Assembly (NCBI RefSeq): GCF_055900595.2
Contig: NZ_CM148325.1
DNA length: 64,000 nucleotides
Strand: one strand, 5' to 3'
Positions within the stretch are counted from its first letter, which is position 1. The number at the start of each line of letters is the position of its first letter. The translations under genes were made by a program, and so were the position numbers. Below, piece by piece: positions 1 to 13,723 of the stretch. Below the pieces are notes generated by a model, which searched no databases, was not told the origin of the DNA, and saw only the letters and a program-made list of their open reading frames with translations.

Positions 1-145
1 CTTCCTGGTATGCGGATTCTTTCGGGAGATAGTAATTGGCATCCGCCCATTCAACGGCGGTCTGTGGCTCCGGCCTGAACAGTGAGCGAAGCCCGGCGCG
101 GACAAAATGCCGCAGCCTGTTAACCTGACTGTTCGATATATTCAC
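1..145 (-). CDS. Terminase large subunit (lambda A-like), N-terminal part, truncated by window edge
   Basis: Reverse translation from GTG at 145 reads (M)NISNSQVNRLRHFVRAGLRSLFRPEPQTAVEWADANYYLPKESAYQE, which matches the lambda gpA N-terminus from memory; overlaps the end of Nu1 as in lambda. Confidence 0.7.
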   Translation of the reverse strand, partial: MNISNSQVNRLRHFVRAGLRSLFRPEPQTAVEWADANYYLPKESAYQE

Positions 146-665
146 TCAGCAACCCCGGTATCAGTTCATCCAGCGCGGCTGCTTTGTTCATGGCTTTGAT
201 GATATCCCGTTTCAGGAAATCAACATGTCGGTTTTCCAGTTCCGGAAAACGCCGCTGCACCGACAGGGGGATCCCGTCGAGAATACTGGCAATTTCACCT
301 GCGATCCGCGACAGCACGAAAGTACAGAATGCGGTTTCCACCACTTCAGCGGAGTCTCTGGCATTTTTCAGCTCCTGTGCGTCGGCCTGTGCACGCGTAA
401 GTCGGTGGCGTTCGTACTCAATAGTCCCTGGCTGGAGATCTGTCTCGCTGGCCTGCCGCAGTTCTTCAACTTCCCGGCGCAGCTTTTCGTTCTCAATTTC
501 AGCATCCCTTTCGGCATACCATTTTATAACGGCGGCAGAGTCATAAAGCACCTCATTACCCTTGCCACCGCCTCGCAGAACGGGCATTCCCTGTTCCTGC
601 CAGTTCTGAATGGTACGGATACTCGCACCGAAAATGTCAGCCAGCTGCTTTTTGTTGACTTCCAT
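120..665 (-). CDS. nohD: Terminase small subunit (Nu1-like)
   Basis: 181-aa ORF MEVNKKQLADIFGASIRTIQNWQEQGMPVLRGGGKGNEVLYD..., recognised as lambda Nu1 / DLP12 NohD. Confidence 0.9.
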   Translation of the reverse strand: MEVNKKQLADIFGASIRTIQNWQEQGMPVLRGGGKGNEVLYDSAAVIKWYAERDAEIENEKLRREVEELRQASETDLQPGTIEYERHRLTRAQADAQELKNARDSAEVVETAFCTFVLSRIAGEIASILDGIPLSVQRRFPELENRHVDFLKRDIIKAMNKAAALDELIPGLLSEYIEQSG

Positions 666-679
666 TGTTCATTCCACGG

Positions 680-900
680 CCAAAAACAGAGAAAGGAAAC
701 GACAGAGGCCCAAAAGTTCGTTTTCAGCACCTGTCGCTTCCTTTCTTTTCAGGGGGTATTTTAAATAAAAACATTAAGTTACGACGAAGAAGAACGGAAA
801 CGCCTTAAACCGGAAAATTTTCATAAATAGCGAAAACCCGCGAGGTCGCCGCCCCGTAACCTGTCGGATCGCCGGAAAGGACCCGCAAAATGATAATAAT
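680..900. other. cos region (cosN cohesive-end site at about 843..854, flanked by cosB/cosQ-like sequence)
   Basis: AGGTCGCCGCCC at 843..854 is the reverse complement of the lambda 12-nt cohesive end GGGCGGCGACCT, directly upstream of Nu1 on the minus strand. Confidence 0.6.
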
Positions 901-1053
901 TATCATCTACATGTCACAACGTGCATCTACGCCATCAAACCACGTCAAATAATCAATTATGACGCAGGTATCGTATTAATTGATCTGCATCAACTTAACG
1001 TAAAAACAACTTCAGACAATACAAATCAGCGACACTGAATACGGGGCAACCTC

Positions 1054-1248
1054 ATGTCAACTAAGAACAGAACCCGCAGAACAACAACCCGCAACATCCG
1101 CTTTCCTAACCAAATGATTGAACAAATTAACATCGCTCTTGAGCAAAAAGGGTCTGGGAATTTCTCAGCCTGGGTCATTGAAGCCTGCCGTCGGAGACTA
1201 ACGTCAGAAAAGAGAGCATATACATCAATCCAGAGTGATGATGAATAA
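1054..1248 (+). CDS. ylcI: Small prophage protein at the lambda right end (YlcI-like)
   Basis: 64-aa ORF MSTKNRTRRTTTRNIRFPNQMIEQINIALEQKGSGNF...; position between cos and bor as in lambda/DLP12. Confidence 0.55.
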   Translation: MSTKNRTRRTTTRNIRFPNQMIEQINIALEQKGSGNFSAWVIEACRRRLTSEKRAYTSIQSDDE

Positions 1249-1607
1249 ACATCCCGGTTTCTTCCACCATCGCACCGGAAAAGCGACTATGAGGGTAACC
1301 CTGCGTCTGTCAGCACAGTAAAACCCGGTGTGCATCGTTTTTGATTATTCCCGCACACTCACGCAGAAGGAATTCCCCGTCGGGCTACGGTCATGGTTAA
1401 TGCGGGAATACGGCGACGATACAGCGCAGCTAAAAGGGTAATGGACAGAAAGAGCGGTTTATTTCATTCCACAGGATTCTGAGTGCCCCCCTCCTCCAAT
1501 AGGCTGAGCATCCACCTATATAGTTTTAATTTTCATCAATCCATTTAACTATCGTTTAATTGTTGTCACATAGGATTCTGCCGTTTTTAACAATGCAGGA
1601 TAATAAG

Positions 1608-1901
1608 ATGAAAAAAATGTTGTTTTCTGCCGCTCTGGCAATGCTTATTACAGGATGTGCTCAACAGACGTTTACTGTTGGAAACAAACCGACAGCAGTA
1701 ACACCAAAGGAAACCATCACCCATCACTTCTTCGTTTCGGGAATTGGACAGGAGAAAACTGTTGATGCAGCCAAAATTTGTGGCGGCGCAGAAAATGTTG
1801 TTAAAACAGAAACCCAGCAAACATTCGTAAATGGATTGCTCGGTTTTATTACTTTAGGCATTTATACTCCGCTGGAAGCGCGTGTGTATTGCTCACAATA
1901 A
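1608..1901 (+). CDS. borD: Bor lipoprotein (serum-resistance family)
   Basis: MKKMLFSAALAMLITGC... signal peptide with lipobox Cys; matches Bor. Start taken at the internal ATG 1608 of the track ORF 1560..1901. Confidence 0.9.
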   Translation: MKKMLFSAALAMLITGCAQQTFTVGNKPTAVTPKETITHHFFVSGIGQEKTVDAAKICGGAENVVKTETQQTFVNGLLGFITLGIYTPLEARVYCSQ

Positions 1902-1932
1902 TTGCATGAGTTGCCCATCGATATGGGCAGCT

Positions 1933-2394
1933 CTATCTGCACTGCTCATTAATATACTTCTGGGTTCCTTCCAGTTGTTTTTGCATAGTGATCAGCCTCT
2001 CTCTGAGGGTGAAATAATCCCGTTCAGCGGTGTCTGCCAGTCGGGGGGAGGCTGCATTATCCACGCCGGAGGCGGTGGTGGCTTCACGCACTGACTGACA
2101 GACTGCTTTGATGTGCAACCGACGACGACCAGCGGCAACATCATCACGCAGAGCATCATTTTCAGCTTTCGCATTAGCTAACTCCTTCGTGTATTTTTCA
2201 TCCAGTGCAGCAACATCACGCTGGCGCATCTGCATGTCAGTAATTGCCGCGTTCGCCAGCTTCAGTTCTCTGGCATTTTTGTCGCGCTGGGCTTTGTAGG
2301 TAATGGCGTTATCACGGTAATGATTAACAGCCCATGACAGGCAGACGATGATGCAGATAACCAGAGCGGAGATAATCGCGGTTACTCTGTTCAT
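1933..2394 (-). CDS. rzpD: Rz spanin (i-spanin)
   Basis: [65 protein letters not shown]..., lambda Rz-like; 4-bp overlap with the lysozyme stop. Confidence 0.85.
1992..2174 (-). CDS. rzoD: Rz1 spanin (o-spanin lipoprotein), embedded in Rz in the +1 frame
   Basis: 60-aa [27 protein letters not shown]...[21 protein letters not shown], proline-rich lipoprotein wholly inside Rz. Confidence 0.8.
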
Positions 2395-2888
2395 TGCTGA
2401 CCCCACAAACAGATTTCACGCTCAATCTCACGACGAGTCATGAGACCTTTCCATTGCTTACCGCCAGCATATGTCCAGCGACGTAGCTGATCACATGCGC
2501 CTTTGATATCGCCCTGGTTTATTTTGCGAAGAAGCGTCGATGTTCTGAAATTGCCAGCGCCCACGTTGTAAACGAACGAGTAAAGAGCGCCGCGCGTTGT
2601 TTCCGGTATATCAACTTTTATGTACGGGTTAATTTGTCTGGCGACCGTGGCAAGGTCTTTATTCAGGAGGGCTTTGCATTCTGCTTTGGTATACGTTTTA
2701 CCGAGCATGATGTCTTTTCCTGTATGCCCGTGACATACAGTCCATACACCAACAATATCTTTGTATGGTATGTAGCTGACACCTTCCAGACCATCGTTAC
2801 CACTTGGGCCAGTGATTAACACTGATGCTATAGCAATTGCTCCGCCACCAATAGCAGCAGCAACGGCTTTTCGTAATGATGGAGGCAT
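2391..2888 (-). CDS. rrrD: Phage endolysin (lysozyme)
   Basis: 165-aa ORF with ...[25 protein letters not shown]...[12 protein letters not shown]..., recognised as DLP12 RrrD-type lysozyme. Confidence 0.9.
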
Positions 2889-3103
2889 TATTCACCTCTC
2901 GCAGCCTTGCGCTTATCTTCTTTAATCTTGAAATAAAGGTTTGTCAGGTACGTCAGCAGGCCAAATACCAGGCTACCCAGCACACCTATTGCTGCCCACT
3001 GTGAGGGCGTGACTTTATCGAGCAGCTGTAAAAACCAGTAACCGGCACTACCTGCTGAGGTGCCATAGGCGACACCCGTTGTTAACTTATCCATGGATTT
3101 CAT
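2888..3103 (-). CDS. essD: Holin
   Basis: [71 protein letters not shown]; small membrane protein directly upstream of the lysozyme. Confidence 0.8.
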
Positions 3104-3813
3104 AACCCCACCTCGCAGACAAAGCGGGTGTAAATTGAGGGAATACAACGTATCGCAAAAAAGCAGAAACGTAACAGACTCGGAGTCAGTGAATAACTCA
3201 GGTATTGAGTTATCAGCTAATATCGAGACTCAAAAAATGGAAAAACCAGCTCGACGGCGGGTTTAAGCTGTGTGACGAAGTAACCACTCTTAACAGCATA
3301 ACCAATTTTTTACGTACGTAAACCACTGAATGATATTTATGAGAATGCTACCGAGTGTTCAAAACACCACCACAAATATATAAGAAAACCTCAACAAATA
3401 ACCAATAAATAATTTCCGGCGTTATTTTTAGTTGATTTGAATTAAACCACCGAATTATAGAACCCCCATAAATAACAGCCATTAATATAAATTAGCTAAT
3501 AGGTTTATTTTTGTTCAAATAAGAGCCATAAATAGGTTTCGATAGAAAAAGTTCAGATAAAAATAGAGATCTACTTCACAAATTAAATGAGAAACTAAAA
3601 CTTACATCTTGAAATAATCACATTGATTAGATGAATATTTATCGCGCAGTGACATCATTTTTTAATAATAGTTCAAAAAAAAGGGCTCACGATGAAAAAA
3701 TTAACAGTGGCAATTTCTGCTGTAGCTGCATCAGTACTGATGGCGATGTCTGCTCAGGCAGCTGAAATTTATAATAAAGACAGTAACAAGCTGGATCTGT
3801 ACGGGAAAGTTAA

Positions 3814-3822: not shown

Positions 3823-5151
3823 CTGATGAATCCCCTAATGATTTTGGTAAAAATCATTAAGTTAAGGTGGATACACATCTTGTCATATGATCAAATGGTT
3901 TCGCCAAAAATCAATAATCAGACAACAAAATGTGCGAACTCGATATTTTACACGACTCTCTTTACCAATTCTGCCCCGAATTACACTTAAAACGACTCAA
4001 CAGCTTAACGTTGGCTTGCCACGCCTTACTTGACTGTAAAACTCTCACTCTTACCGAACTTGGCCGTAACCTGCCAACCAAAGCGAGAACAAAACATAAC
4101 ATCAAACGAATCGACCGATTGTTAGGTAATCGTCACCTCCACAAAGAGCGACTCGCTGTATACCGTTGGCATGCTAGCTTTATCTGTTCGGGCAATACGA
4201 TGCCCATTGTACTTGTTGACTGGTCTGATATCCGTGAGCAAAAACGGCTTATGGTATTGCGAGCTTCAGTCGCACTACACGGTCGTTCTGTTACTCTTTA
4301 TGAGAAAGCGTTCCCGCTTTCAGAGCAATGTTCAAAGAAAGCTCATGACCAATTTCTAGCCGACCTTGCGAGCATTCTACCGAGTAACACCACACCGCTC
4401 ATTGTCAGTGATGCTGGCTTTAAAGTGCCATGGTATAAATCCGTTGAGAAGCTGGGTTGGTACTGGTTAAGTCGAGTAAGAGGAAAAGTACAATATGCAG
4501 ACCTAGGAGCGGAAAACTGGAAACCTATCAGCAACTTACATGATATGTCATCTAGTCACTCAAAGACTTTAGGCTATAAGAGGCTGACTAAAAGCAATCC
4601 AATCTCATGCCAAATTCTATTGTATAAATCTCGCTCTAAAGGCCGAAAAAATCAGCGCTCGACACGGACTCATTGTCACCACCCGTCACCTAAAATCTAC
4701 TCAGCGTCGGCAAAGGAGCCATGGATTCTAGCAACTAACTTACCTGTTGAAATTCGAACACCCAAACAACTTGTTAATATCTATTCGAAGCGAATGCAGA
4801 TTGAAGAAACCTTCCGAGACTTGAAAAGTCCTGCCTACGGACTAGGCCTACGCCATAGCCGAACGAGCAGCTCAGAGCGTTTTGATATCATGCTGCTAAT
4901 CGCCCTGATGCTTCAACTAACATGTTGGCTTGCGGGCGTTCATGCTCAGAAACAAGGTTGGGACAAGCACTTCCAGGCTAACACAGTCAGAAATCGAAAC
5001 GTACTCTCAACAGTTCGCTTAGGCATGGAAGTTTTGCGGCATTCTGGCTACACAATAACAAGGGAAGACTCACTCGTGGCTGCAACCCTGCTTACTCAAA
5101 ATCTATTCACACATGGTTACGTTTTGGGGAAATTATGAGGGGATCTCTCAG
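3823..5151 (+). mobile_element. IS10 insertion sequence (1329 bp)
   Basis: Begins CTGATGAATCCCCTAATGATTTTGGTAAAAATCATTAAG and ends ...ATTATGAGGGGATCTCTCAG (IS10 outside/inside ends from memory); length 1329 bp; encodes the transposase. Confidence 0.9.
3930..5138 (+). CDS. IS10 transposase
   Basis: 402-aa [70 protein letters not shown]..., recognised as Tn10/IS10 transposase. Confidence 0.9.
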
Positions 5152-5160
5152 TGCCAAGCA
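5152..5160. repeat. Right copy of the 9-bp IS10 target-site duplication (TGCCAAGCA)
   Basis: Same 9-mer as 3814..3822; removing IS10 plus one copy restores ...VNAKHYFSS... in frame. Confidence 0.8.
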
Positions 5161-6250
5161 CTACTTTTCCTCTAACGATGCAGATGATGGTGATACTACT
5201 TATGCCCGTCTTGGCTTCAAAGGTGAAACCCAAATCAACGATCAACTGACTGGTTTCGGTCAGTGGGAATATGAATTCAAAGGCAACCGCGCTGAATCTC
5301 AAGGTTCCTCCAAAGACAAAACCCGTCTTGCATTTGCAGGCCTGAAATTCGGTGACTACGGCTCAATCGATTACGGCCGTAACTACGGTGTAGCATACGA
5401 CATCGGTGCGTGGACTGACGTCCTGCCAGAATTCGGTGGTGATACCTGGACCCAAACAGATGTGTTCATGACTGGTCGCACTACTGGTGTTGCAACTTAT
5501 CGTAACAACGACTTCTTTGGTCTGGTCGATGGCCTGAACTTTGCTGCTCAGTATCAGGGTAAAAATGACCGCACTGACGTAACTGAAGCCAATGGTGATG
5601 GTTTCGGTTTCTCCACTACTTATGAGTATGAAGGATTCGGCGTGGGTGCAACCTATGCTAAATCAGATCGCACTGACGGTCAGGTCGCCTATGGTAAGAG
5701 CAAATTCAATGCCTCCGGCAAAAATGCGGAAGTATGGGCTGCAGGCCTGAAATATGATGCGAACAATATCTATCTGGCTACCACATATTCTGAAACTCAG
5801 AATATGACCGTTTTTGGTAATAACCATATTGCAAACAAAGCACAAAACTTTGAAGCAGTAGCACAATATCAGTTTGACTTCGGTCTGCGCCCATCTGTTG
5901 CTTACCTTCAGTCAAAAGGTAAAGACCTTGGTGTTCATGGTGACCGAGACTTAGTCAAGTATGTCGATGTCGGTGCTACTTACTACTTTAATAAAAACAT
6001 GTCCACTTTTGTTGATTACAAAATCAACTTAATTGACGATAGTAAGTTTACCAAAACAGCTGGTATTGATACTGATGACATCGTTGCTGTAGGTCTGGTT
6101 TACCAGTTCTAATCTGATTACGAAAAAGATATGTTGCGGGAGGCGTTGCCTCCCCAACATATAAGTGGCTCCCTCAAGCCACTTCCTTTAGAAGCACAAC
6201 CTTGCTTCTAACTATATAAACCTTCTGTTATATATTACCCTTTATTTTTG

Positions 6251-6301: not shown

Positions 6302-6700
6302 TTAATTAGAGTTATTAACAACGATATCCATCTCTAACCGGATATCTAATGCCATTAACATCCCTTCAATTATGCCCTCAGCCTTTTGTAACCTTTTCCC
6401 GATATAACCATCAGAGCAGCAATGCTTACCTGCCAGTGACATGAATGTCATACCGACTACATAATAATCTACTAATAAATCGTGCAAATCGCTGTTGTTC
6501 TTTTTCAGACGGGCCATGCACCCGCAAATGATCATCGCGTCATCGTCACAACATTGCGGGCGAGATTTTACTTTTGAAGGAATTAATCCCTTAAAACCGG
6601 CGGCAATGGACGACCAGGTCACATCTTCATGATTATTAGCCGCCCACGCTCCCCAACGCTCAAGAACCATCTGAATATCACGCATCAACTTACTCCACAA
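6302..6700 (-). CDS. quuD: Late-gene antiterminator Q-like protein
   Basis: 132-aa ORF ...[18 protein letters not shown]...[36 protein letters not shown]...; Q position upstream of the lysis cassette; recognised as DLP12 QuuD. Confidence 0.75.
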
Positions 6701-6767: not shown

Positions 6768-6908
6768 ACTTCATACTCCTGCTCCTGTCAGTGTTTTGGC
6801 GTAATTCTTCAGTATTCGGTAATCGGTCAAAACAGAGCCGGGGAAACGATATAAGCGCAGACGCCCCCAGCGGTGGCGAAGAAGTTCTGCCATATTAAAC
6901 TCAAACAT
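6768..6908 (-). CDS. ylcG: Small prophage protein (YlcG-like), 46 aa
   Basis: Manual translation [45 protein letters not shown]; start overlaps the rusA stop. Confidence 0.4.
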
Positions 6909-7270
6909 CATTCATTCCCCATTTCGGTGATGGTCAGTTCCAGCCTCCCACCTTTGGTAACAGGCATCTTCACAACGCGGTAATCAACGACCTGAGCATC
7001 ATCCAGCCAGAAACCTGCTTTAGTGAGTGCGTCAAAAGCGGCTTTTTGCAGATTATCCAGGTCACGGCGACGGCGATCCGGCATGTGGCACTCAATGCGG
7101 ATTTTCACAGGCATAGCCAGGCCGATATCCAGCATTGCGTTTTTAATGATTCGGGCGACGTTATCGCGGTATGCCTGCCCCTCTGCGCTGACGTGCGTGC
7201 GCCCGCGATTATGGCGGTAATAGCGATTATTGCTCGGAGGCCAGGGTAGTGTGATGTGGTAAGTATTCAC
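6908..7270 (-). CDS. rusA: Holliday-junction resolvase RusA
   Basis: 120-aa [54 protein letters not shown]..., recognised as RusA. Confidence 0.9.
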
Positions 7271-7559
7271 GCCTTAATTACCCTCTCTTTCAGCCAGATA
7301 ACCTGCGTTCTCGCCATACCTTCCAGCGCGCATTCTTTTGCATATCCAGCGTCAACAAAATGCGTGCGGCGGTCGATTTCGTCGTGGCAGGCAGAACATG
7401 CAATGGTGGCAATCAGGTCTGGCGGTTTGATACCGGTACCGCACAATCCAGCCAGCCGGATATGTGCCAGTACAGACGTCTCAGAATTGCCATTACATAC
7501 GCCAGGGATTCTTACCTGGCATTCCCGACCACGCGCTGCTTTTCTCAAATCAGCCATGA
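7267..7559 (-). CDS. ybcO: Nin-region protein YbcO (Cys-rich, putative nuclease)
   Basis: [62 protein letters not shown]...; start at the internal ATG of the track ORF. Confidence 0.8.
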
Positions 7560-7720
7560 TTCCTCCTTGCTGCCAGTCGCAACCATTTTTTATCAACCAG
7601 GCTAGCGGTATATCCGAGCAGTGTTGGTATTTCGGATGGCTTCAGCTCAGGCTTACGCTTACGACGATTTGATACTCTGTAGATGTGTCCGTTCATGACA
7701 CGAATAAGCGGTGTAGCCAT
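7547..7720 (-). CDS. ninE: NinE-like small protein
   Basis: Manual translation [56 protein letters not shown]; start overlaps the ybcN stop, stop overlaps the ybcO start. Confidence 0.55.
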
Positions 7721-8175
7721 TACGCCTCCTGCTTGTCGCGGAGCAGCTGGAACTCGCAGCTCTGCGGAATAGTCAGGTGGCAGCCAATATTCATCGCCCA
7801 GGCTTCAACCTTACACAGGAAGACATACATCTCTCCGGTATCAAGATTGGAGGTATGGCGTAACGACTGGATAGTGGTGATATCACCGGTTACGACATCA
7901 ACCAGGTCTTTGGTTTCATAACCGAGATATGTGTGTTTGAGAGCATCTTTTACCCAAGCTGGAGTGGCGAACGTTTTACCCCTGCTGATGAGGTATTCAC
8001 TGATTTCGCTGTACCACATGTGGCTGAGTGCATTCTGGGAAAGACTGCGTTTCTCACGCCACGGTTTAAGCACCAGGCGAAAGCATTTGCCCTCCTCCAG
8101 ATAAGGCTGGATCTGCCGACCGATAGCGGTGAAGTTGCCGCGATGTAATTTGATGCCGTCTTGTGAGAGGTTCAC
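7720..8175 (-). CDS. ybcN: NinB-family recombination protein
   Basis: 151-aa ORF (GTG start) [55 protein letters not shown]..., recognised as DLP12 YbcN. Confidence 0.85.
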
Positions 8176-8208
8176 GCTTCCCCTCCGCAGAGGTCAAACG
8201 TTGGATGC

Positions 8209-8333
8209 AAAAAAACGCAGGTGCATTTCTGCATCTGTGAAGGGAGAAGAGAGTTTGGATTGTATGTGCGCATAAACGTCCCCGTTTAGCGCAGAAGTCA
8301 CCGGAGTTGTTCAGGCTCCGATGACATGATTAT
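8209..8333. repeat. Direct repeat A (about 125 bp) flanking the accessory cassette
   Basis: AAAAAAACGCAGGTGCATTTCTGCATCTGTGAAGGGAGAAGAGAGTTTGGATTGT... aligns with 10596..10720, with about 16 substitutions and one 1-bp indel by manual alignment. Confidence 0.75.
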
Positions 8334-8359
8334 GGCGGGTTGATTATTGAAAATCAAAG

Positions 8360-9037
8360 TTAATCGTACGAGTCGAGTATGTTCTGAAACGCCCAGCCAT
8401 CCTCCTTAGGAACACAAGACAGAATCGAATGAATTAGATCCCCTGCGGAAAGAAGTAACCCTTCTTGCCCTTCAAGAAAATAACGCCATTTAGGTCCATG
8501 AAACAGATTGTTCCGTAACCGGAAACAAACGAACAAGCACACTGCAAGCTGAGTCTCAGGCTCGGTTGTCATAGCTTGCATGGCTGAAAAACAGTCATCT
8601 CTCGCCTTTTGAGAGGTGTGGTGTAATTCCCCGCATAGGCTTTCAAACTTGCTTTTATCATTTACATAGCGTTCTGAAAAAAAATCGTATGTACACTTGA
8701 GAACCCCCAGATCCACAACCTCCATTTGCAAAAGACGATTGGCATATTTCGCACTTTTGCCTTGCCCCCCAGCGCAATTAAGAAGTAGAGACTCGAAGAA
8801 AGAGAAGTACAAAAAATAACGATTAACGGCGGTAAGGATAGATGGGGTAATCCTGCCTTCTGCATTAATCAACTCGTCAAATTCTGATGAAAAATCCAAC
8901 TGTTCATCCTTTTCCATTATATTCGGCCATTTATTGATATTGCACATCAGTCGCTCTTGGCAATGACAGGTTTGCTCTCGGTAATGTCTCAAACGCCCCA
9001 AAAAGTAGTCTCGCAAATGCTCTAGTTGCTCGCGCAT
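8360..9037 (-). CDS. Hypothetical protein with a HEPN-like Rx4H motif (possible abortive-infection RNase)
   Basis: 225-aa ORF; C-terminal region contains ...CLFVCFRLRNNLFHGPKWRYF... (R-x4-H); AT-rich; weak RBS, start codon uncertain (alternative MEKDEQLDF...). Confidence 0.45.
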   Translation of the reverse strand: MREQLEHLRDYFLGRLRHYREQTCHCQERLMCNINKWPNIMEKDEQLDFSSEFDELINAEGRITPSILTAVNRYFLYFSFFESLLLNCAGGQGKSAKYANRLLQMEVVDLGVLKCTYDFFSERYVNDKSKFESLCGELHHTSQKARDDCFSAMQAMTTEPETQLAVCLFVCFRLRNNLFHGPKWRYFLEGQEGLLLSAGDLIHSILSCVPKEDGWAFQNILDSYD

Positions 9038-9161
9038 AACAACTTCGGCGATAACCGGCTATTCGGTCGTTCTTTATACGCTACGCTTGAAGGCGCAAGG
9101 CCAACGCTTACCTTGTCACGTTCCTATTGCGGTTTTGCTGCAATGTTCCTGTCAGTCTGAC

Positions 9162-9189
9162 ATAAAAAACCCCTCAATCATCTGAGGGG
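9162..9189 (-). terminator. Rho-independent terminator after the 66-aa gene
   Basis: On the minus strand CCCCTCA-GATGAT-TGAGGGG followed by TTTTTTAT. Confidence 0.55.
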
Positions 9190-9197
9190 ATTAGACA

Positions 9198-9398
9198 TCA
9201 TTGCTTCCAATACTTTTGAACCCGGATATTCATTGGCACACAAACATTTTCATAGATAGGGCCGCTAACAGTCATGACTATATAAATACCATCAAGACCA
9301 TCAATATTAAGCGAGAGTCTATCTCCGGCTCTAACCTCACGCTCTAGTTCAATATCTTCTACTCGTCCAGTATCATCGAAAGTCACTGAATACATCAT
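9198..9398 (-). CDS. Hypothetical small protein (66 aa)
   Basis: ORF MMYSVTFDDTGRVEDIELEREVRAGDRLSLNIDGLDGIYIVMTVSGPIYENVCVPMNIRVQKYWKQ followed by its own terminator; no recognisable family. Confidence 0.35.
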   Translation of the reverse strand: MMYSVTFDDTGRVEDIELEREVRAGDRLSLNIDGLDGIYIVMTVSGPIYENVCVPMNIRVQKYWKQ

Positions 9399-9560
9399 TT
9401 CAAATTTCCATCTAAGTGCATGAGGTGTCTAACGAAAATACCATAAAGAGAATTTGATTACATTGAACTTTTTCAGTGCTTACTTGGCTTATCTGAAGCC
9501 TTAATCATTGCCGCCCAGTGCGCTACCTGCTTGCATCCATTCAGCGCCTAATATGTAAAA

Positions 9561-10169
9561 CTATTGCAATCTAGCCTGACGCAAATGTGGCAATACCCTG
9601 CTCCACTTATTATCCTGCCAAGGCTGGAATTTTACATGTGCCGTTTTTCTGGCAAGGATTTCGCGCGCCTTATGTAGTATCTGGGGATATTCTTGCTCGA
9701 TAGAAGTAAAGCGACCGGCTTCGCGGTGTTCCGCAACCTGAAGAAGTGGAGTAACGTTCTGGCAGGCGGTTAACATCGTATCACTTGCTCGCCATAACCA
9801 AGCAAGTGTGCAAAGTTCGTTATCAGTGAATTGTTTTGTGATCGGGGATTGTTGAACTTCTCGATCGAGAATATCCAGAACCCAGCGGCGGAACTCTTTG
9901 GCTACAGGAGTTCGTGCAAACATGGCGATCAAATGGGCTCCGCGAAGGCTAAATACTCGAGACTCCTGCATTCCACGAGGGGTGGTCACTTTGACCACCC
10001 TTGTCATCATATCTGTAAATTCATCTGAGTGACGAGAGTAAATGCGCTGAACTGCTTTATCGTCCGCATATTCCAGAGCTAAACCAACTTCAGTGGCAGT
10101 AAGCCAAATTCTGTTATTGTGGCAAATTGGGGTAAACGTCGTTTTGTGGAATGCTAATTGAGTAGTCAT
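9561..10169 (-). CDS. Bro-N-like / phage antirepressor-family protein
   Basis: 202-aa ORF with N-terminal ...FHKTTFTPICHNNRIWLTATEVGLALEY...RGMQESRVFSLRGAHLIAMFARTPVAKEFRRWVLDIL...; good SD (GAGGTGA) 5 nt upstream of ATG. Confidence 0.55.
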   Translation of the reverse strand: MTTQLAFHKTTFTPICHNNRIWLTATEVGLALEYADDKAVQRIYSRHSDEFTDMMTRVVKVTTPRGMQESRVFSLRGAHLIAMFARTPVAKEFRRWVLDILDREVQQSPITKQFTDNELCTLAWLWRASDTMLTACQNVTPLLQVAEHREAGRFTSIEQEYPQILHKAREILARKTAHVKFQPWQDNKWSRVLPHLRQARLQ

Positions 10170-10331
10170 AGTATCACCTCATCAGGTTAACCATCACCAC
10201 CAACGACGCCAATCGACTGGTGGTGAACTGTGCAAGGTTGGCGTAACCGGCTACTCAAACCCGGCGCTCCCGAAGAAGCCCTCACACAGCCCACCATAAT
10301 TTGGGCGTAGCCGTGCTTAGCGCATAAAAAA

Positions 10332-10346
10332 ACCGCTTAACGCGGT
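10332..10346 (-). terminator. Possible rho-independent terminator upstream of the Bro-N-like gene
   Basis: Minus strand ACCGC-GTTAA-GCGGT followed by TTTTTTTAT; short stem. Confidence 0.35.
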
Positions 10347-10432
10347 ATGCGTTGAGTAGTATTCCGGGACGCCAATCCCGTGTGCCGATTTTGCGGCAAC
10401 GCACAGAATATAGCGCCGGATAAATAATGTCG

Positions 10433-10621
10433 TCAACCCTTGCAAATGGGTGGCGCGATGATCACTACTACCACTATAACCGCTCCAACTGTTGCAACTA
10501 CTTTAGGCCAAGACATCAAGATTTCCATATCACCTTTAGCTGCGAAACGAACAGAGGTTCCCATCTCTATACTGCCGAGGCCAAACACCGAATATAAAAA
10601 ACCGCAGGTGCATTTCTGCAT
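10433..10621 (-). CDS. Possible small hydrophobic peptide (about 31 aa from the internal start MEILMSWPKVVATVGAVIVVVVIIAPPICKG)
   Basis: Track ORF of 62 aa; internal ATG preceded by AAAGGTGAT; hydrophobic C-terminal segment; starts inside direct repeat B. Confidence 0.2.
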   Translation of the reverse strand: MQKCTCGFLYSVFGLGSIEMGTSVRFAAKGDMEILMSWPKVVATVGAVIVVVVIIAPPICKG

Positions 10622-10720
10622 CTATGACGGGAGAAGATAGTTTGGATTGTGTGGGCTCATAAACTCCCCGTTTGGTGCAGTAGTCACCGTAGTTGTTCAT
10701 ATTCTGATGACATGATAATT
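10596..10720. repeat. Direct repeat B (about 125 bp), partner of 8209..8333
   Basis: AAAAAACCGCAGGTGCATTTCTGCATCTATGACGGGAGAAGATAGTTTGGATTGT..., same orientation as repeat A. Confidence 0.75.
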
Positions 10721-10917
10721 TCCTATTGAATAGAAAAAATTAACACTACTCATTCTTATGACTAGAAAAAGCAATCATGCTAATAATCATTGTTGTTCCA
10801 GTTCCAAATGCAGCGAAATAATCACTAATATTTTTTCTACCGGTTTCGACTTTGATGCTATATTCTGCTAACACCTAACTAACACTACGTTTCACACAGC
10901 AATTACATGGAAATAAC

Positions 10918-11265
10918 ATGACTATCAAAGCGACTGACATAGAGATTCTTCATCGTTATGCTGAAGGGGTAATGGAACGTTCTAACCATCATGCAAAAAA
11001 TGTTGGTGCAGCCGCTCTTACATTGCTAGGAGGTGTTATCTGGAAAGCCCTGCCCGGCTCAATCGAGATAAGAACGTATAACGGAAGTCTTGCAAATATG
11101 GTGTGGTGGCAAAGCGAAAGAACATTAAAAAATTATGCAATCTCATACAACCATAATTCATGTGAAATTGAAATGAGAGATGAATCAGTCAAAGGTGCTG
11201 TATTATTTAGCATTTCCAACGAAACCACTCCAGAAAAAATATTATCACAGCTTTCTGAGCTTTAA
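10918..11265 (+). CDS. Hypothetical protein (115 aa), oriented against the surrounding early operon
   Basis: ORF MTIKATDIEILHRYAEGVMERSNHHAKNVGAAALTLLGGVIWKALPGSIEIRTYNGSLANMVWWQSERTL...; AT-rich; no family recognised. Confidence 0.45.
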   Translation: MTIKATDIEILHRYAEGVMERSNHHAKNVGAAALTLLGGVIWKALPGSIEIRTYNGSLANMVWWQSERTLKNYAISYNHNSCEIEMRDESVKGAVLFSISNETTPEKILSQLSEL

Positions 11266-11469: not shown

Positions 11470-12171
11470 TCATACACTTGCTCCTTTCAGCCCAAACTTA
11501 GCTTTGATTTCTGCGATCTTCGCCAGAGCCTGTGCACGATTTAGAGGTCTACCGCCCATGACAGGAAGTTGTTTTACTGGTTCAGGTATCGCCTCACCAC
11601 GGTTAATTCGCGCGGTCATACAGGTCAGCTCATCGGCAGCTTTACGCCGTAATTCCGCGTCAGTCAGCGCATTGGCCCGCATGTTCTGGTACAGGTTGGT
11701 AACCAACCAGTAGTGCGCGTTTGATTTCCATGGATAAGACTCTGCGTCCGGATACAGGCCACGCTTCCGGCAATACTCGTAAACCATATCAACCAGCTCG
11801 CTAGCGTTTGGCAGCCCGGCGGTAACGGATGCTTCTTCCCGGCACCAGGCAACAAACTGCCCGGGTGATGGCAGGAATGGTCGATTCTGCCGACGGGCTA
11901 CGCGCATTCCAGCGTTAACCTGTTCCATCGTGGTGATCCCATTTTCCCGGAAAGCCAGAACCCACTGGCGGCGGATTTCGTTCAGTTCGTTCTGGTCACG
12001 GTTAGCCAGGCTCGCAGGGAAAGTTGCCAGTAACTGGCTGAACACACCGTTGATGATCTGCGCTACCTGCTGTACCTGCGGCTTTTCGTCGTACTGTTCC
12101 GGCATGTTGTTGGCGATCCGACGCATCTGCTCACGGTCAAAGTTAACCATCTGTGCGGCGATGTTTTTCAT
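11470..12171 (-). CDS. P: Replication protein P (DnaB helicase loader), lambda-like
   Basis: 233-aa ORF MKNIAAQMVNFDREQMRRIANNMPEQYDEKPQVQQVAQIINGVFSQLLATFPASLANRDQNE..., recognised as near-identical to lambda P. Confidence 0.92.
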   Translation of the reverse strand: MKNIAAQMVNFDREQMRRIANNMPEQYDEKPQVQQVAQIINGVFSQLLATFPASLANRDQNELNEIRRQWVLAFRENGITTMEQVNAGMRVARRQNRPFLPSPGQFVAWCREEASVTAGLPNASELVDMVYEYCRKRGLYPDAESYPWKSNAHYWLVTNLYQNMRANALTDAELRRKAADELTCMTARINRGEAIPEPVKQLPVMGGRPLNRAQALAKIAEIKAKFGLKGASV

Positions 12172-13097
12172 AGATCAACCCCGTAAATCCAGTCTGTGTT
12201 TGTCAGGTCGAGTTTTGGTTTGCTGGCTGTCACGCCTGCCTGTTGCTTGTTACGGTTGATTTCGAGCTGGGTCCACTTGTCGCGGAGTTTGGCCGGACTT
12301 AGCACGTTACCGGACCAGAAGTTGTCCTGGCATGCCCAGCGGAACAGCACGCACATGTCGCGGTGGTTACGTCCGTCACGTTCACGCATCAGGCGGATAT
12401 CGTTAGCCCACCCTGCAAAATTCGGTTTTCTGGCTGATGGCGCGATGGTCTTCACCATGTCAAACATCCACTCTGCGGCGGTCAGGTCTTCTGCTGTCCC
12501 CCACTTGCTGCCGCTCTGAATCGCAGCATCCGGTTTCACCACAGGAAGGTCGTTTTCTGGCTGATCAGAGGATTCGCCAGAATTCTCGGACGAATAAGGT
12601 TTTATATTGTCTTTTGTTAGTTTGTCTTTTGTGTTTACCTGATTCGGGTAAACGCCTTTACCTGATTTGGGTAAACTTTTCTTACCTGATTCAGGTAAAT
12701 TTACCTCTTTCAGGTAAACTTTATTTTTCTTACCTGATTCGGGTAATGTTGACCATTCACTGACCACATTATTAATACCGATATTCCGCCCGCTCTGAAT
12801 CAAAATCCCACGCTTTACCAGAACACTTTTTGCAGCAGAACACTTGTGCGGTAATATCTCGGTCAATCCAGACAGTTGCTCGTTGCTCACCCAATCCAGT
12901 TTTTTATTAAAGCCATATGTTTTGCGCATGACAGCCAGGAAGACCAGAAGCTGGTGCTGTGTTAATCCGGCCAGCATCACAGCTTCCAGCAACTCATTTG
13001 CAATGCGCGTATAACCATCATCGAGATCTGCCACGCGCGGCTCCTTTTGTGCCGCATCCGGCACTGGAAAATTGAATATCTCAGCAGTGTTTGCCAT
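12168..13097 (-). CDS. O: Replication initiator O (lambda-like C-terminus, divergent iteron-binding N-terminus)
   Basis: Start taken at MANTAEIFNFP... (SD GGGAGGA upstream) inside track ORF 12168..13187; C-terminus ...WMFDMVKTIAPSARKPNFAGWANDIRLMRERDGRNHRDMCVLFRWACQDNFWSGNVLSPAKLRDKWTQLEINRNKQQAGVTASKPKLDLTNTDWIYGVDL matches lambda O. Confidence 0.85.
   Translation of the reverse strand: MANTAEIFNFPVPDAAQKEPRVADLDDGYTRIANELLEAVMLAGLTQHQLLVFLAVMRKTYGFNKKLDWVSNEQLSGLTEILPHKCSAAKSVLVKRGILIQSGRNIGINNVVSEWSTLPESGKKNKVYLKEVNLPESGKKSLPKSGKGVYPNQVNTKDKLTKDNIKPYSSENSGESSDQPENDLPVVKPDAAIQSGSKWGTAEDLTAAEWMFDMVKTIAPSARKPNFAGWANDIRLMRERDGRNHRDMCVLFRWACQDNFWSGNVLSPAKLRDKWTQLEINRNKQQAGVTASKPKLDLTNTDWIYGVDL
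12635..12746. repeat. Phage replication origin: five iterons (TTACCTGATTCGGGTAAA-like inverted repeats) inside the O gene, next to an AT-rich stretch
   Basis: Copies at about 12635, 12658, 12682, 12701 and 12730, each with TTACC...GGTAA arms; AT-rich run at 12600..12634. Confidence 0.65.
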
Positions 13098-13183
13098 AAT
13101 TCCTCCCGCAATGAGTGTGTTACGATTTGCACCTGAAAGTCGGTTCTGTTCCAGCAGACCGGCTTTCGCCATTTCTGAACCTG

Positions 13184-13723
13184 TCATATCGCCCCCAGCA
13201 TGGTAGTAACCATCGCCATCAATGGACCAGCCAGATCTGGGTCCACACGAAACATCGATACAATACCTTCACTAATTTCCTTCAGTTTCTGGTGGCGTGG
13301 TGCGTTGAGAATGACAGCCTGTTTTGCCTCACTGAGTTCCTTTTCCATTTCAGCCAGCCGAGCTATGAAGCTATCCTGCTCAACCAGGTGGCCGCGATAT
13401 TCCAGCGGTAGTACCGCCAGAATTGCCGGGGTCAGTTCACGCACGTTATTTCGGTATTTTTCAGAATCGAATTTGTTATCGAGGAAGCGGAACAGCTTCT
13501 GGCGTGCACGGCTGACATCATCAGGGAAATCGATGGTGCCGCCGCCCTGCTCCCGATACTCATTCACAATGAGTGCGGCAACGACATCCTGATTATCTAC
13601 AGCCGACCAGGCGCGGACGGCATCACGGATTTTTTCGTGGCCTGGAGCTTGTTTTGTTTGAGAACGATTTATCACCGCAGTCGGGCTAAATCCGCTAGTC
13701 TGTTGGTATGTAAGTGGTTGCAT
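13184..13723 (-). CDS. CII-position regulator, YdaT-like
   Basis: 179-aa ORF with strong SD (AAAGGAG); ...VNEYREQGGGTIDFP...LTPAILAVLPLEYRGHL... resembles Rac YdaT (EEYLRQGGGELPL / LIPAILAILPRELRHRL, from memory). Confidence 0.55.
   Translation of the reverse strand: MQPLTYQQTSGFSPTAVINRSQTKQAPGHEKIRDAVRAWSAVDNQDVVAALIVNEYREQGGGTIDFPDDVSRARQKLFRFLDNKFDSEKYRNNVRELTPAILAVLPLEYRGHLVEQDSFIARLAEMEKELSEAKQAVILNAPRHQKLKEISEGIVSMFRVDPDLAGPLMAMVTTMLGAI

Follow-up and report, generated by a model that had tools for sequence, protein, structure and literature searches.

The locus described here belongs to a lambda-like prophage of Escherichia coli and lies on contig NZ_CM148325.1 (NCBI RefSeq assembly GCF_055900595.2), of which a stretch of 64,000 nucleotides, called the window, was analysed. 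The prophage backbone is of the DLP12/phage-82 type, and the genes O, P, ninB/ybcN, ninE, ybcO, rusA, ylcG, and Q follow each other on the minus strand, with an accessory segment between P and ninB/ybcN. About 2.4 kb of this segment is enclosed by two direct repeats (8209..8333 and 10596..10720). In this DLP12/phage-82-like lambdoid prophage, the P-to-ninB slot is hypervariable, and the segment that fills it is probably an accessory region of mosaic make-up and not the one phage-defence island that a preliminary description, made from the letters alone, had proposed; the breakpoints instead separate at least three independently swapped modules, and PADLOC gave no match. The three minus-strand open reading frames (ORFs) of that description, 9561..10169 (202 aa), 9198..9398 (66 aa), and 8360..9037 (225 aa), are all present, and they represent an antirepressor (Ant), a small protein, and an ORF that contains a HEPN-like gene. 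The HEPN-like and 66-aa genes have a G+C content of 39-45%, whereas the phage core genes next to them reach 48-56%. Both repeats are nin operon leaders: copy A is intact and serves ninB, and copy B is a decayed duplicate. Their features are the following.

8166..8357, minus strand: copy A, the intact nin leader (repeat search, X92588 promoter, RNAfold, and covariance model R1)
8357..8352, minus strand: -35 element TTGATT of copy A (X92588 annotation and promoter scan)
8334..8329, minus strand: -10 element CATAAT of copy A (X92588 annotation and promoter scan)
8325..8297, minus strand: stem-loop 1 (SL1) of copy A, with loop CCUGAACAA (covariation)
8292..8268, minus strand: stem-loop 2 (SL2) of copy A, with a GGGA loop that doubles as Shine-Dalgarno sequence (covariation)
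8237..8218, minus strand: terminator-like hairpin (hairpin 3) of copy A, with a T-run at 8215..8209 (terminator scan)
8172..8273, minus strand: leader ORF of copy A, 33 codons (annotated in RefSeq and X92588)
10553..10743, minus strand: copy B, the decayed leader duplicate (repeat search, RNAfold, and R1)
7720..8175, minus strand: ninB/ybcN, which opens the nin operon and anchors the variable slot on the right (ORF list and RefSeq name)

Global alignment of the repeats gives 108 matches, 16 mismatches, and 2 gap columns (108/125 identical), which agrees with the roughly 16 substitutions and one indel counted by hand before. BLAST aligns the pair with 83% identity over 147 bp (E = 2.6e-38), and by ungapped extension a weaker homology of 76-78%, far above chance, reaches over about 190 bp (8166-8357 versus 10553-10743). 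In copy A, the TGA of the leader ORF overlaps the GTG start of ninB (GTGA). The folding energy of this copy is -39.4 kcal/mol in RNAfold (z = -5.3), and R1 scores 103 bits at 8200..8328. In copy B, the -10 element is changed, SL1 and SL2 are disrupted, and the leader ORF ends at codon 13 with TAG, while the terminator-like hairpin is kept (10620..10603); the RNAfold z-score is -1.8, and R1 gives 58.2 bits at 10587..10714.

Copy A is 96.6% identical to the start of the phage 82 record X92588. Both share the same -35 and -10 elements (putative in X92588), inverted repeat, ribosome-binding site, and 33-codon ORF, orf33, which abuts the ninB homologue orf151. We take orf33 of phage 82 to be the same gene as ylcH of the DLP12 prophage in E. 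coli K-12. Two differences stand out: the inverted repeat, noted in X92588 as a “possible regulator-binding site,” corresponds here to two covarying RNA hairpins with a conserved, coupled leader ORF, and the leader is duplicated in the window prophage.

The 131-bp core of the repeat occurs in 4253 of the 5426 complete E. coli genomes (78%), at 6303 places. It is also present in phage 82, phi80, HK639, HK225, and Klebsiella and Enterobacter phages, and all records inspected have it immediately before ninB. The repeats had been presented as boundary sequences of the cassette, with a ubiquitous conserved regulatory sequence named beforehand as the finding that would speak against this; a ubiquitous conserved leader, not specific to the cassette, is what they turned out to be. 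On NZ_CP007491.1, a diverged leader (3496..3624, R1 39.6 bits) stands after ybcM and is followed by IS200/IS605 tnpA/tnpB, not by ninB. It lies in an apparent prophage remnant between fliE and yedK, and similar matches occur in other genomes.

The RNA structure of the leader was compared in 131 copies, which were collected from viral contigs and fetched genomes by an exact 20-nt pattern from hairpin 3. SL1 exists in 56 sequence variants among these copies, mostly with 8-14 uninterrupted pairs and a conserved loop CCUGAACA(A/C). SL2 takes on at least six unrelated stems around the invariant GGGA loop, which is the Shine-Dalgarno sequence of the leader ORF. A plain MAFFT alignment with RNAalifold gave a poor consensus in which stems of unlike length were misaligned, and it was replaced by hairpin-by-hairpin counts and an alignment to a covariance model. 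This model, R1, was built from 11 leader copies and finds both copies of the window. In the R1 alignment, which was fitted to the model itself, 97.6% of the cells pair (82% in shuffles, 20-32% with slid partners), and compensatory changes on both sides are found in 16 of the 20 SL1/SL2 pairs. All 126 of 126 copies have a leader ORF of 31-44 codons, and in 119/126 its stop and the start codon of the long ORF that follows overlap as ATGA or GTGA. Hairpin 3 and its T-run lie inside this conserved ORF, and both copies of the window have kept hairpin and T-run. The SL1 loop CUGAAC (window 8315..8307) recurs in the single-stranded linker (window 8262..8240) of HK639-type copies (AAUCUGAACUCC).

By its anatomy, ubiquity, and structural conservation, the repeat unit is read here as the structured leader of the nin operon. 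The leader possibly acts as an attenuator, and a partner, protein or RNA, might bind at the conserved loops of SL1 and SL2. A boxB/nut-like or put-like antitermination RNA was considered for SL1/SL2, and nothing here supports it. The prophage anti-sRNAs AgvB/AsxR were rejected as an identity of the repeat, as those RNAs are 51-60 nt long and located downstream of PR' (PMC4104026), and an Rfam match is lacking. No match in Rfam 15 overlaps either repeat, even at E<=5. Literature searches with the invariant 18-nt hairpin sequence and with phrases naming ylcH or the region before ninB/ybcN returned nothing relevant. In Gifsy-1, transcription has been found to start 1.6 kb before antQ (PMC4825925); in the window, the -10 element (8329) and the start of Q (6700) stand equally far apart, a likeness in distance.

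The allele without the segment was sought with an artificial empty-site query that joins the 5′ end of ninB, copy A, and the sequence left of copy B. It matches the two E. coli sequences NZ_CP114130 and NZ_CP173115 in one piece, with 100% cover and 95.8% identity, so that relatives with an empty site and a single repeat, which the preliminary description had suggested looking for, do exist. The gene order there is P, Vch_cass14, one leader, and ninB. The single leader is a hybrid, whose P side is identical to B-type copies and whose ninB side is identical to A-type copies, with the switch inside a shared identical stretch. This hybrid fits homologous recombination between leader copies as a means of gain or loss, in line with the earlier suggestion of recombination between the repeats.

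The two-copy arrangement recurs in ETEC1720, LR-50, 95-3322, phage IdasGreatGrand, and two viral contigs. On viral contig L055, two leader copies enclose the ant module alone, and the module breakpoints of different cargoes lie at different positions. Mosaic module exchange and “morons” in lambdoid phages were reportedly described by Susskind and Botstein, Juhala et al. 2000, and Clark et al. 2001. As in lambdoid mosaicism generally, optional genes with their own terminators lie here between conserved operon genes, with junctions at sequences common to phages. What is unlike the usual case is that the junction sequence is a long functional leader that occurs twice in one genome and that an exact empty-site allele is at hand. 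Viral contig IMGVR_UViG_2609459941_000002 also carries two nin leader copies (6847..11079), about 4.1 kb apart with three genes between them. By eye, we take these genes to encode a 380-aa tail-fibre-like protein, a 620-aa protein with a colicin E3 rRNase-like C-terminus, and an immunity-like protein (84-aa ORF), and the gene after the second leader to be presumably Q antiterminator-like rather than ninB.

The cargo on the P side of the segment is an antirepressor module with two small RNAs.

9561..10169, minus strand: Ant antirepressor, 202 aa (Pfam Bro-N and P22_AR_C, PHROG Ant families, RefSeq name)
10216..10301, minus strand: C4 antisense RNA (RF01695; 72.7 bits versus a gathering threshold of 45)
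10398..10326, minus strand: IsrK RNA (RF01394; 60.7 bits versus a gathering threshold of 50), with its own terminator at 10346..10332
10436..10407, minus strand: promoter-like site TTGACG-18-TATATT (promoter scan)
10187..10297, minus strand: 36-codon upstream ORF over C4 (read from the sequence; by position it equals orf45 of Gifsy-1 and icd of P1, PMC4825925)
10433..10621, minus strand: small ORF ending in a hydrophobic helix (...MSWPKVVATVGAVIVVVVIIAPPICKG) (ORF list; PHROG 4612, E 7e-13, function unknown)

Ant matches Pfam Bro-N (E 7.6e-10) and P22_AR_C (E 3.7e-16) as well as PHROG families of anti-repressor Ant down to E 1e-54, and GAGGTG precedes its ATG. Its naming as a Bro-N-like antirepressor-family protein with a good ribosome-binding site was right. 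The IsrK and C4 RNAs upstream of ant had been overlooked, like the small hydrophobic ORF and the theta pseudogene, and were found by the Rfam scan; IsrK overlaps a sub-threshold match to the c4-a1b1 target at 10413..10361 (40.6 bits versus 46.7). In its 5′ part, the small hydrophobic ORF consists of the last portion of copy B's decayed leader ORF, and homologous ORFs follow copy B in other prophages. The ant gene, both RNAs, and copy B are found together at a cover of at least 80% in 130 of the 5426 genomes. The Gifsy antirepressors are LexA-controlled; no LexA box was found near the ant promoter in 9500-10800.

The order of parts, namely a promoter, an IsrK-type RNA with terminator, a C4-type RNA under a short ORF, and a Bro-N/P22AR gene, is that of isrK-orf45-anrP in Gifsy-1 and of c4-icd-ant in the immI region of P1/P7. 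The ant module is an IsrK/C4-controlled antirepressor of the Gifsy-1/P1 immI kind. This kind of module regulates prophages rather than acting in defence (PMC4825925); the family assignment of the Bro-N gene stands, and its place in a defence island is not supported. In Gifsy-1, translation of the long isrK-orf45-anrP transcript is switched on by the short IsrK RNA, and AnrP in turn increases the expression of antQ (PMC4825925). The modules differ in place, which is the P-ninB slot here and downstream of Q in Gifsy-1, and in the upstream ORF, whose 36 codons end 17 nt before the ATG of ant with its own GAGGTG, whereas orf45 overlaps anrP by AUGA (PMC4825925). IsrJ, present in Gifsy-1, was not found here. 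By analogy, Ant would act as in Gifsy-1.

The middle of the segment is occupied by the 66-aa gene and the remains of a gene for the theta subunit of DNA polymerase III.

9198..9398, minus strand: 66-aa protein (PHROG 38858, E 1e-50, function unknown)
9170..9189, minus strand: strong intrinsic-terminator-like hairpin CCCCTCAGATGATTGAGGGG with a TTTTTT run, immediately behind the 66-aa gene (terminator scan)
about 8971..9163, minus strand: pseudogene of DNA polymerase III theta, holE/hot-like (PHROG 1105, NCBIfam PRK10969, Pfam PF06440)

The 66-aa protein has no match in Pfam, PADLOC, or NCBIfam and, by tblastn, none among 50,697 phage records. The terminator that had been ascribed to its gene is the strong hairpin 9189..9170 with TTTTTT. 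The terminator scan finds nine terminator-like hairpins versus 3.4 expected in shuffles. Among them are 9189..9170, 10346..10332, and one within each repeat (8236..8213 in A and 10620..10603 in B), in agreement with the earlier count of at least two. Read against the theta gene of HK639, the theta remnant is dead, with 4 nt inserted after codon 3, a TAG in frame, and 1 nt deleted; its DNA is 78.6% identical to HK639 theta over 9003-9155. RefSeq marks the theta counterpart as frameshifted in LR-50 and 95-3322, and an intact theta gene lies directly upstream of the leader in HK639, CobraSix, and KO-TP1. In all three E. coli prophages with ant, the 66-aa gene, and theta, the theta gene upstream of the cargo is frameshifted. 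Together with the distant HEPN-like homologue P0048 treated below, this comparison covered the loci window, about 9163..8971; L004, 3286..3542; L138, 2918..3167; and L140, 3256..3405. In 95-3322 and LR-50, the 66-aa gene stands with ant and theta beside a different cargo, and it is not linked to the HEPN-like gene.

The HEPN-like gene lies next to copy A.

8360..8947 (start at M31, 195 aa) or 8360..8917 (start at M41, 185 aa), minus strand: HEPN-like gene (homologue lengths)

The 225-aa ORF of the preliminary description exists, and its length is misleading. This ORF, which runs to 9037, is a chimera with 30 extra N-terminal codons, and its residues 1 to about 23 match the C-terminal part of DNA polymerase III theta (PHROG 1105, PRK10969, PF06440). 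As homologues are 185-203 aa long, the true start is M31 or M41 and the real protein has 185-195 aa; an AAGAG Shine-Dalgarno-like sequence precedes M31. An exhaustive search at E<=1e-3 collects 203 representative clusters of mostly 160-180 aa with a single domain. Close homologues (58-86% identity) occur in Citrobacter, Klebsiella, Enterobacter, and Salmonella. The settings of distant ones include early regions of prophages, the neighbourhood of an integrase with a fused AAA_21-DUF4435 gene or of Mrr, and, once, a place directly after a theta fragment. The 28%-identical homologue P0048 directly follows a 49-aa theta fragment, so the adjacency of theta and HEPN-like gene is recurrent. By tblastn, the protein has no match among the 50,697 phage records.

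The proposed active site, CFRLRNNLFHG, is present and forms the motif R143-L-R145-N-N-L-F-H150-G-x-K-W. An Rx4H arrangement with a polar residue right after the arginine is a HEPN signature. Among 82 diverse homologues, E52, R93, R145, and G151 are invariant, and F44, F90, Y94, L104, R143, N146, N147, F149, H150, K153, W154, Q161, and N164 are conserved in at least 90%, which confirms that both residues of the Rx4H motif are kept across the family. The AlphaFold2 (AF2) model is all-alpha with nine helices (pLDDT, the per-residue confidence score, 90.6; pTM, the predicted template modelling score, 0.87). Its neighbours in AFDB50, with template modelling (TM) scores of 0.62-0.76, are mostly named “Apea-like HEPN domain-containing protein,” some RiboL-PSP or MAE_28990 HEPN; the “Apea-like HEPN” names are automatic labels that could not be reproduced with Pfam. 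Solved HEPN structures match the model only weakly, and a sequence-profile search of the PDB returned only a chance match to Cas9 (E 0.36).

Two known systems come near this protein. ApeA is a single-gene abortive-infection tRNase of about 580 aa, in which N-terminal and Mid domains form a ligand pocket and ring oligomers, followed by a C-terminal HEPN_ApeA domain (bioRxiv 10.64898/2026.01.26.701840). Both share a conserved Rx4H-type motif in a helical domain, and the nearest predicted structures bear the Apea-like HEPN name. The window protein, however, is the helical domain alone (185-195 aa, homologues 160-203 aa), and it matches neither the PADLOC ApeA models nor Pfam HEPN_Apea. Since ApeA has the additional N-terminal and Mid domains, the window protein is not an ApeA system. 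Compared with the minimal HEPN-MNT toxins (HepT/MntA), it is longer, with its nine helices, and lacks a profile match. Its neighbours are the theta pseudogene, the 66-aa protein, and the nin leader, and a nucleotidyltransferase antitoxin is found neither here nor beside the distant homologues.

In other prophages, the same slot holds other cargo. ETEC1720 and many O26, O111, O103, and O157 strains carry a 138-aa protein, named HEPN domain-containing in RefSeq and matching the PADLOC candidate PDC-M28A, together with a 133-aa partner. Strain 95-3322 lacks any counterpart of 8358-8993 and has a 210-aa protein that contains RNKYAH and weakly matches DUF4145, RiboL-PSP, and Swt1 HEPN. Different HEPN-type genes thus occupy the slot in other prophages, and cargo of this type is swapped at the position immediately before leader A.

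In the mosaic reading, recombination between the leader copies, or with other lambdoid phages that bear the same leader, would add, remove, or exchange the cargo between them. The cargo would follow in the order of the small hydrophobic ORF with the IsrK/C4-controlled Ant, the 66-aa gene with its terminator, the dead theta gene, and the HEPN-like gene. Ant, by analogy, would inactivate a repressor once the RNA switch permits translation. The weakest point is the HEPN-like protein, which is predicted from its motif and model to cleave RNA without a metal through R145 and H150, as a toxin or an abortive-infection effector, and for which neither a profile match nor a promoter-like site was found; a defence or toxin role is plausible. 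The reading is carried by several observations: the anatomy, ubiquity, and conserved structure of the leader, the allele with an empty site, the breakpoints between modules, the identified RNAs and Ant module, and the conserved HEPN-like motif. The segment is a typical mosaic accessory region that is unusually completely documented, that is, a well-documented case of ordinary prophage mosaicism.

Several observations weigh against this reading. The empty site may be either the ancestral state or a deletion product. The HEPN assignment, sound in the conservation of Rx4H, fails at the profile level: no Pfam family, HEPN included, matches the query at E<=10 or the 82 members at E<=0.1, and PADLOC and NCBIfam are likewise silent on the protein. 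Neither a partner antitoxin nor a sensor domain is evident. The gene is very rare, with 2 of the 5426 E. coli genomes and a 75%-identical variant in LR-50, and in NZ_CP104681 it is interrupted by IS421, which could be neutral decay or relief from a costly gene. The promoter scan finds no promoter-like site, sigma-70-like ones included, between the 9189..9170 terminator and the HEPN-like gene, and so gives no support to the expression independent of pR that the preliminary description expected. On the side of the leader, covariation was counted on an alignment fitted to the same model, and the invariance of hairpin 3 stems in part from the selection of copies by its own 20-nt pattern. The IS421 (IS4-like) copy lies within the locus 2153..3265 of NZ_CP104681.1, and this is the only genome 100% identical to the window across the region.

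The alternatives concern either the way the segment moves or the nature of its HEPN-like gene. If the repeats delimited a discrete cassette that a site-specific recombinase or a transposase moves in the manner of integron cassettes or att-flanked elements, an optional segment between direct repeats and a one-copy empty site would be expected, and both are found. It is nevertheless the least credible of the explanations, because the ORF list and RefSeq names show no recombinase or transposase in or beside the segment and the repeat is a functional leader of 130-190 bp that stands singly in most lambdoid prophages without any cassette. The copies moreover differ by 14-24%, the breakpoints of different cargoes do not fall at one place, and the crossover at the empty site lies within a long shared stretch, as homologous recombination predicts. 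Scarcely more credible is a toxin-antitoxin pair of the HEPN-like and 66-aa proteins. The two genes share a strand, with about 250 bp between them, and neutralisation of HEPN toxins by small proteins is common, but a strong terminator and the theta pseudogene separate them, the 66-aa gene of 95-3322 stands with ant and theta beside the unrelated 210-aa cargo, and distant HEPN-like homologues have no such neighbour. On this linkage, as it travels with ant and theta, the 66-aa protein was rejected as an antitoxin.

The HEPN-like gene itself could be a decaying, non-functional passenger, a fragment captured by illegitimate recombination into the dead theta gene and left unexpressed. The chimeric annotated ORF with its theta-derived N-terminus, the lack of a promoter-like site downstream of the strong terminator, the IS421 disruption in one of only two carrier genomes, and the extreme rarity in E. 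coli without a match in sequenced phages all fit such a passenger. It is still an unlikely account, though one to be taken seriously. The ORF is intact over the full family length and keeps all of E52, R93, Y94, R143, R145, N146, N147, H150, G151, K153, and W154, homologues of 58-86% identity are maintained in four other genera, AAGAG precedes M31, and read-through from upstream promoters or N-antiterminated transcription from pR could express the gene. Rather less probable is that the 185-195-aa protein is helical and carries its conserved RxRNNxFHG patch without being an RNase, for example as a regulator, an anti-defence factor, or a binding protein. The absent HEPN profile matches, the weak match to solved HEPN structures, and the automatic names of the AFDB neighbours would allow this. 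Rx4H with its polar residue is, however, the most conserved feature of the family, other HEPN-type genes sit in the same slot, and homologues are found in mobile and defence-rich contexts.

A further reading, put forward tentatively and more doubtful than that of a mosaic region, places the leader at the centre. The repeat unit, at the head of the nin (ninB-to-Q) operon, would be an undescribed cis-regulatory RNA, very widespread in enterobacterial lambdoid phages, whose promoter, SL1 and SL2 (loops CUGAACA and GGGA), and leader ORF of 31-33 codons with terminator-like hairpin set transcription and translation into ninB, and whose 130-190 bp also serve as a portable homology block for cargo swaps. 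The same tentative proposal would count among the cargo antirepressors under RNA control, HEPN-type genes of several unrelated kinds, and a colicin-E3-like toxin with its immunity gene, the last of these on one viral contig.

The locus yields two leads: one is a minimal HEPN-like family that is not catalogued, the other the structured nin leader, which is very common. The family of 203 clusters is compact and single-domain, is missed by current defence catalogues, and lacks a match in Pfam, PADLOC, and the solved structures. The leader, annotated for 30 years only as “orf33 plus putative promoter,” is a conserved structured element in about four-fifths of the complete E. coli genomes and has no Rfam entry. 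The slot upstream of it, in which unrelated HEPN-type genes replace one another, could be mined for toxins and abortive-infection genes. Duplication of the leader offers a concrete mechanism for module exchange, and current ideas of prophage mosaicism are not overturned by it.

The remaining features belong to the surroundings of the segment.

13187..12168, minus strand: O (ORF list and RefSeq names from near-identical genomes)
12171..11470, minus strand: P (ORF list and RefSeq names from near-identical genomes)
6700..6302, minus strand: Q (ORF list and RefSeq names)

Between P and copy B, at 10918..11265 on the plus strand, lies a 115-aa integron cassette protein, VCH_CASS14 (Pfam, E 6.5e-20). 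Its surroundings are AT-rich (35-40% G+C), with a hairpin 3′ of the gene. The empty-site genomes have this gene too, and its position is not between the repeats, so that it counts as a separate moron. Next to Q, a porin-like ORF of the OmpC/NmpC type (5135..6112, plus strand) is followed downstream by a match to IS10 RNA-OUT (97.3 bits; 3868..3937, minus strand), which suggests that the late region of this DLP12-like prophage carries an IS10.

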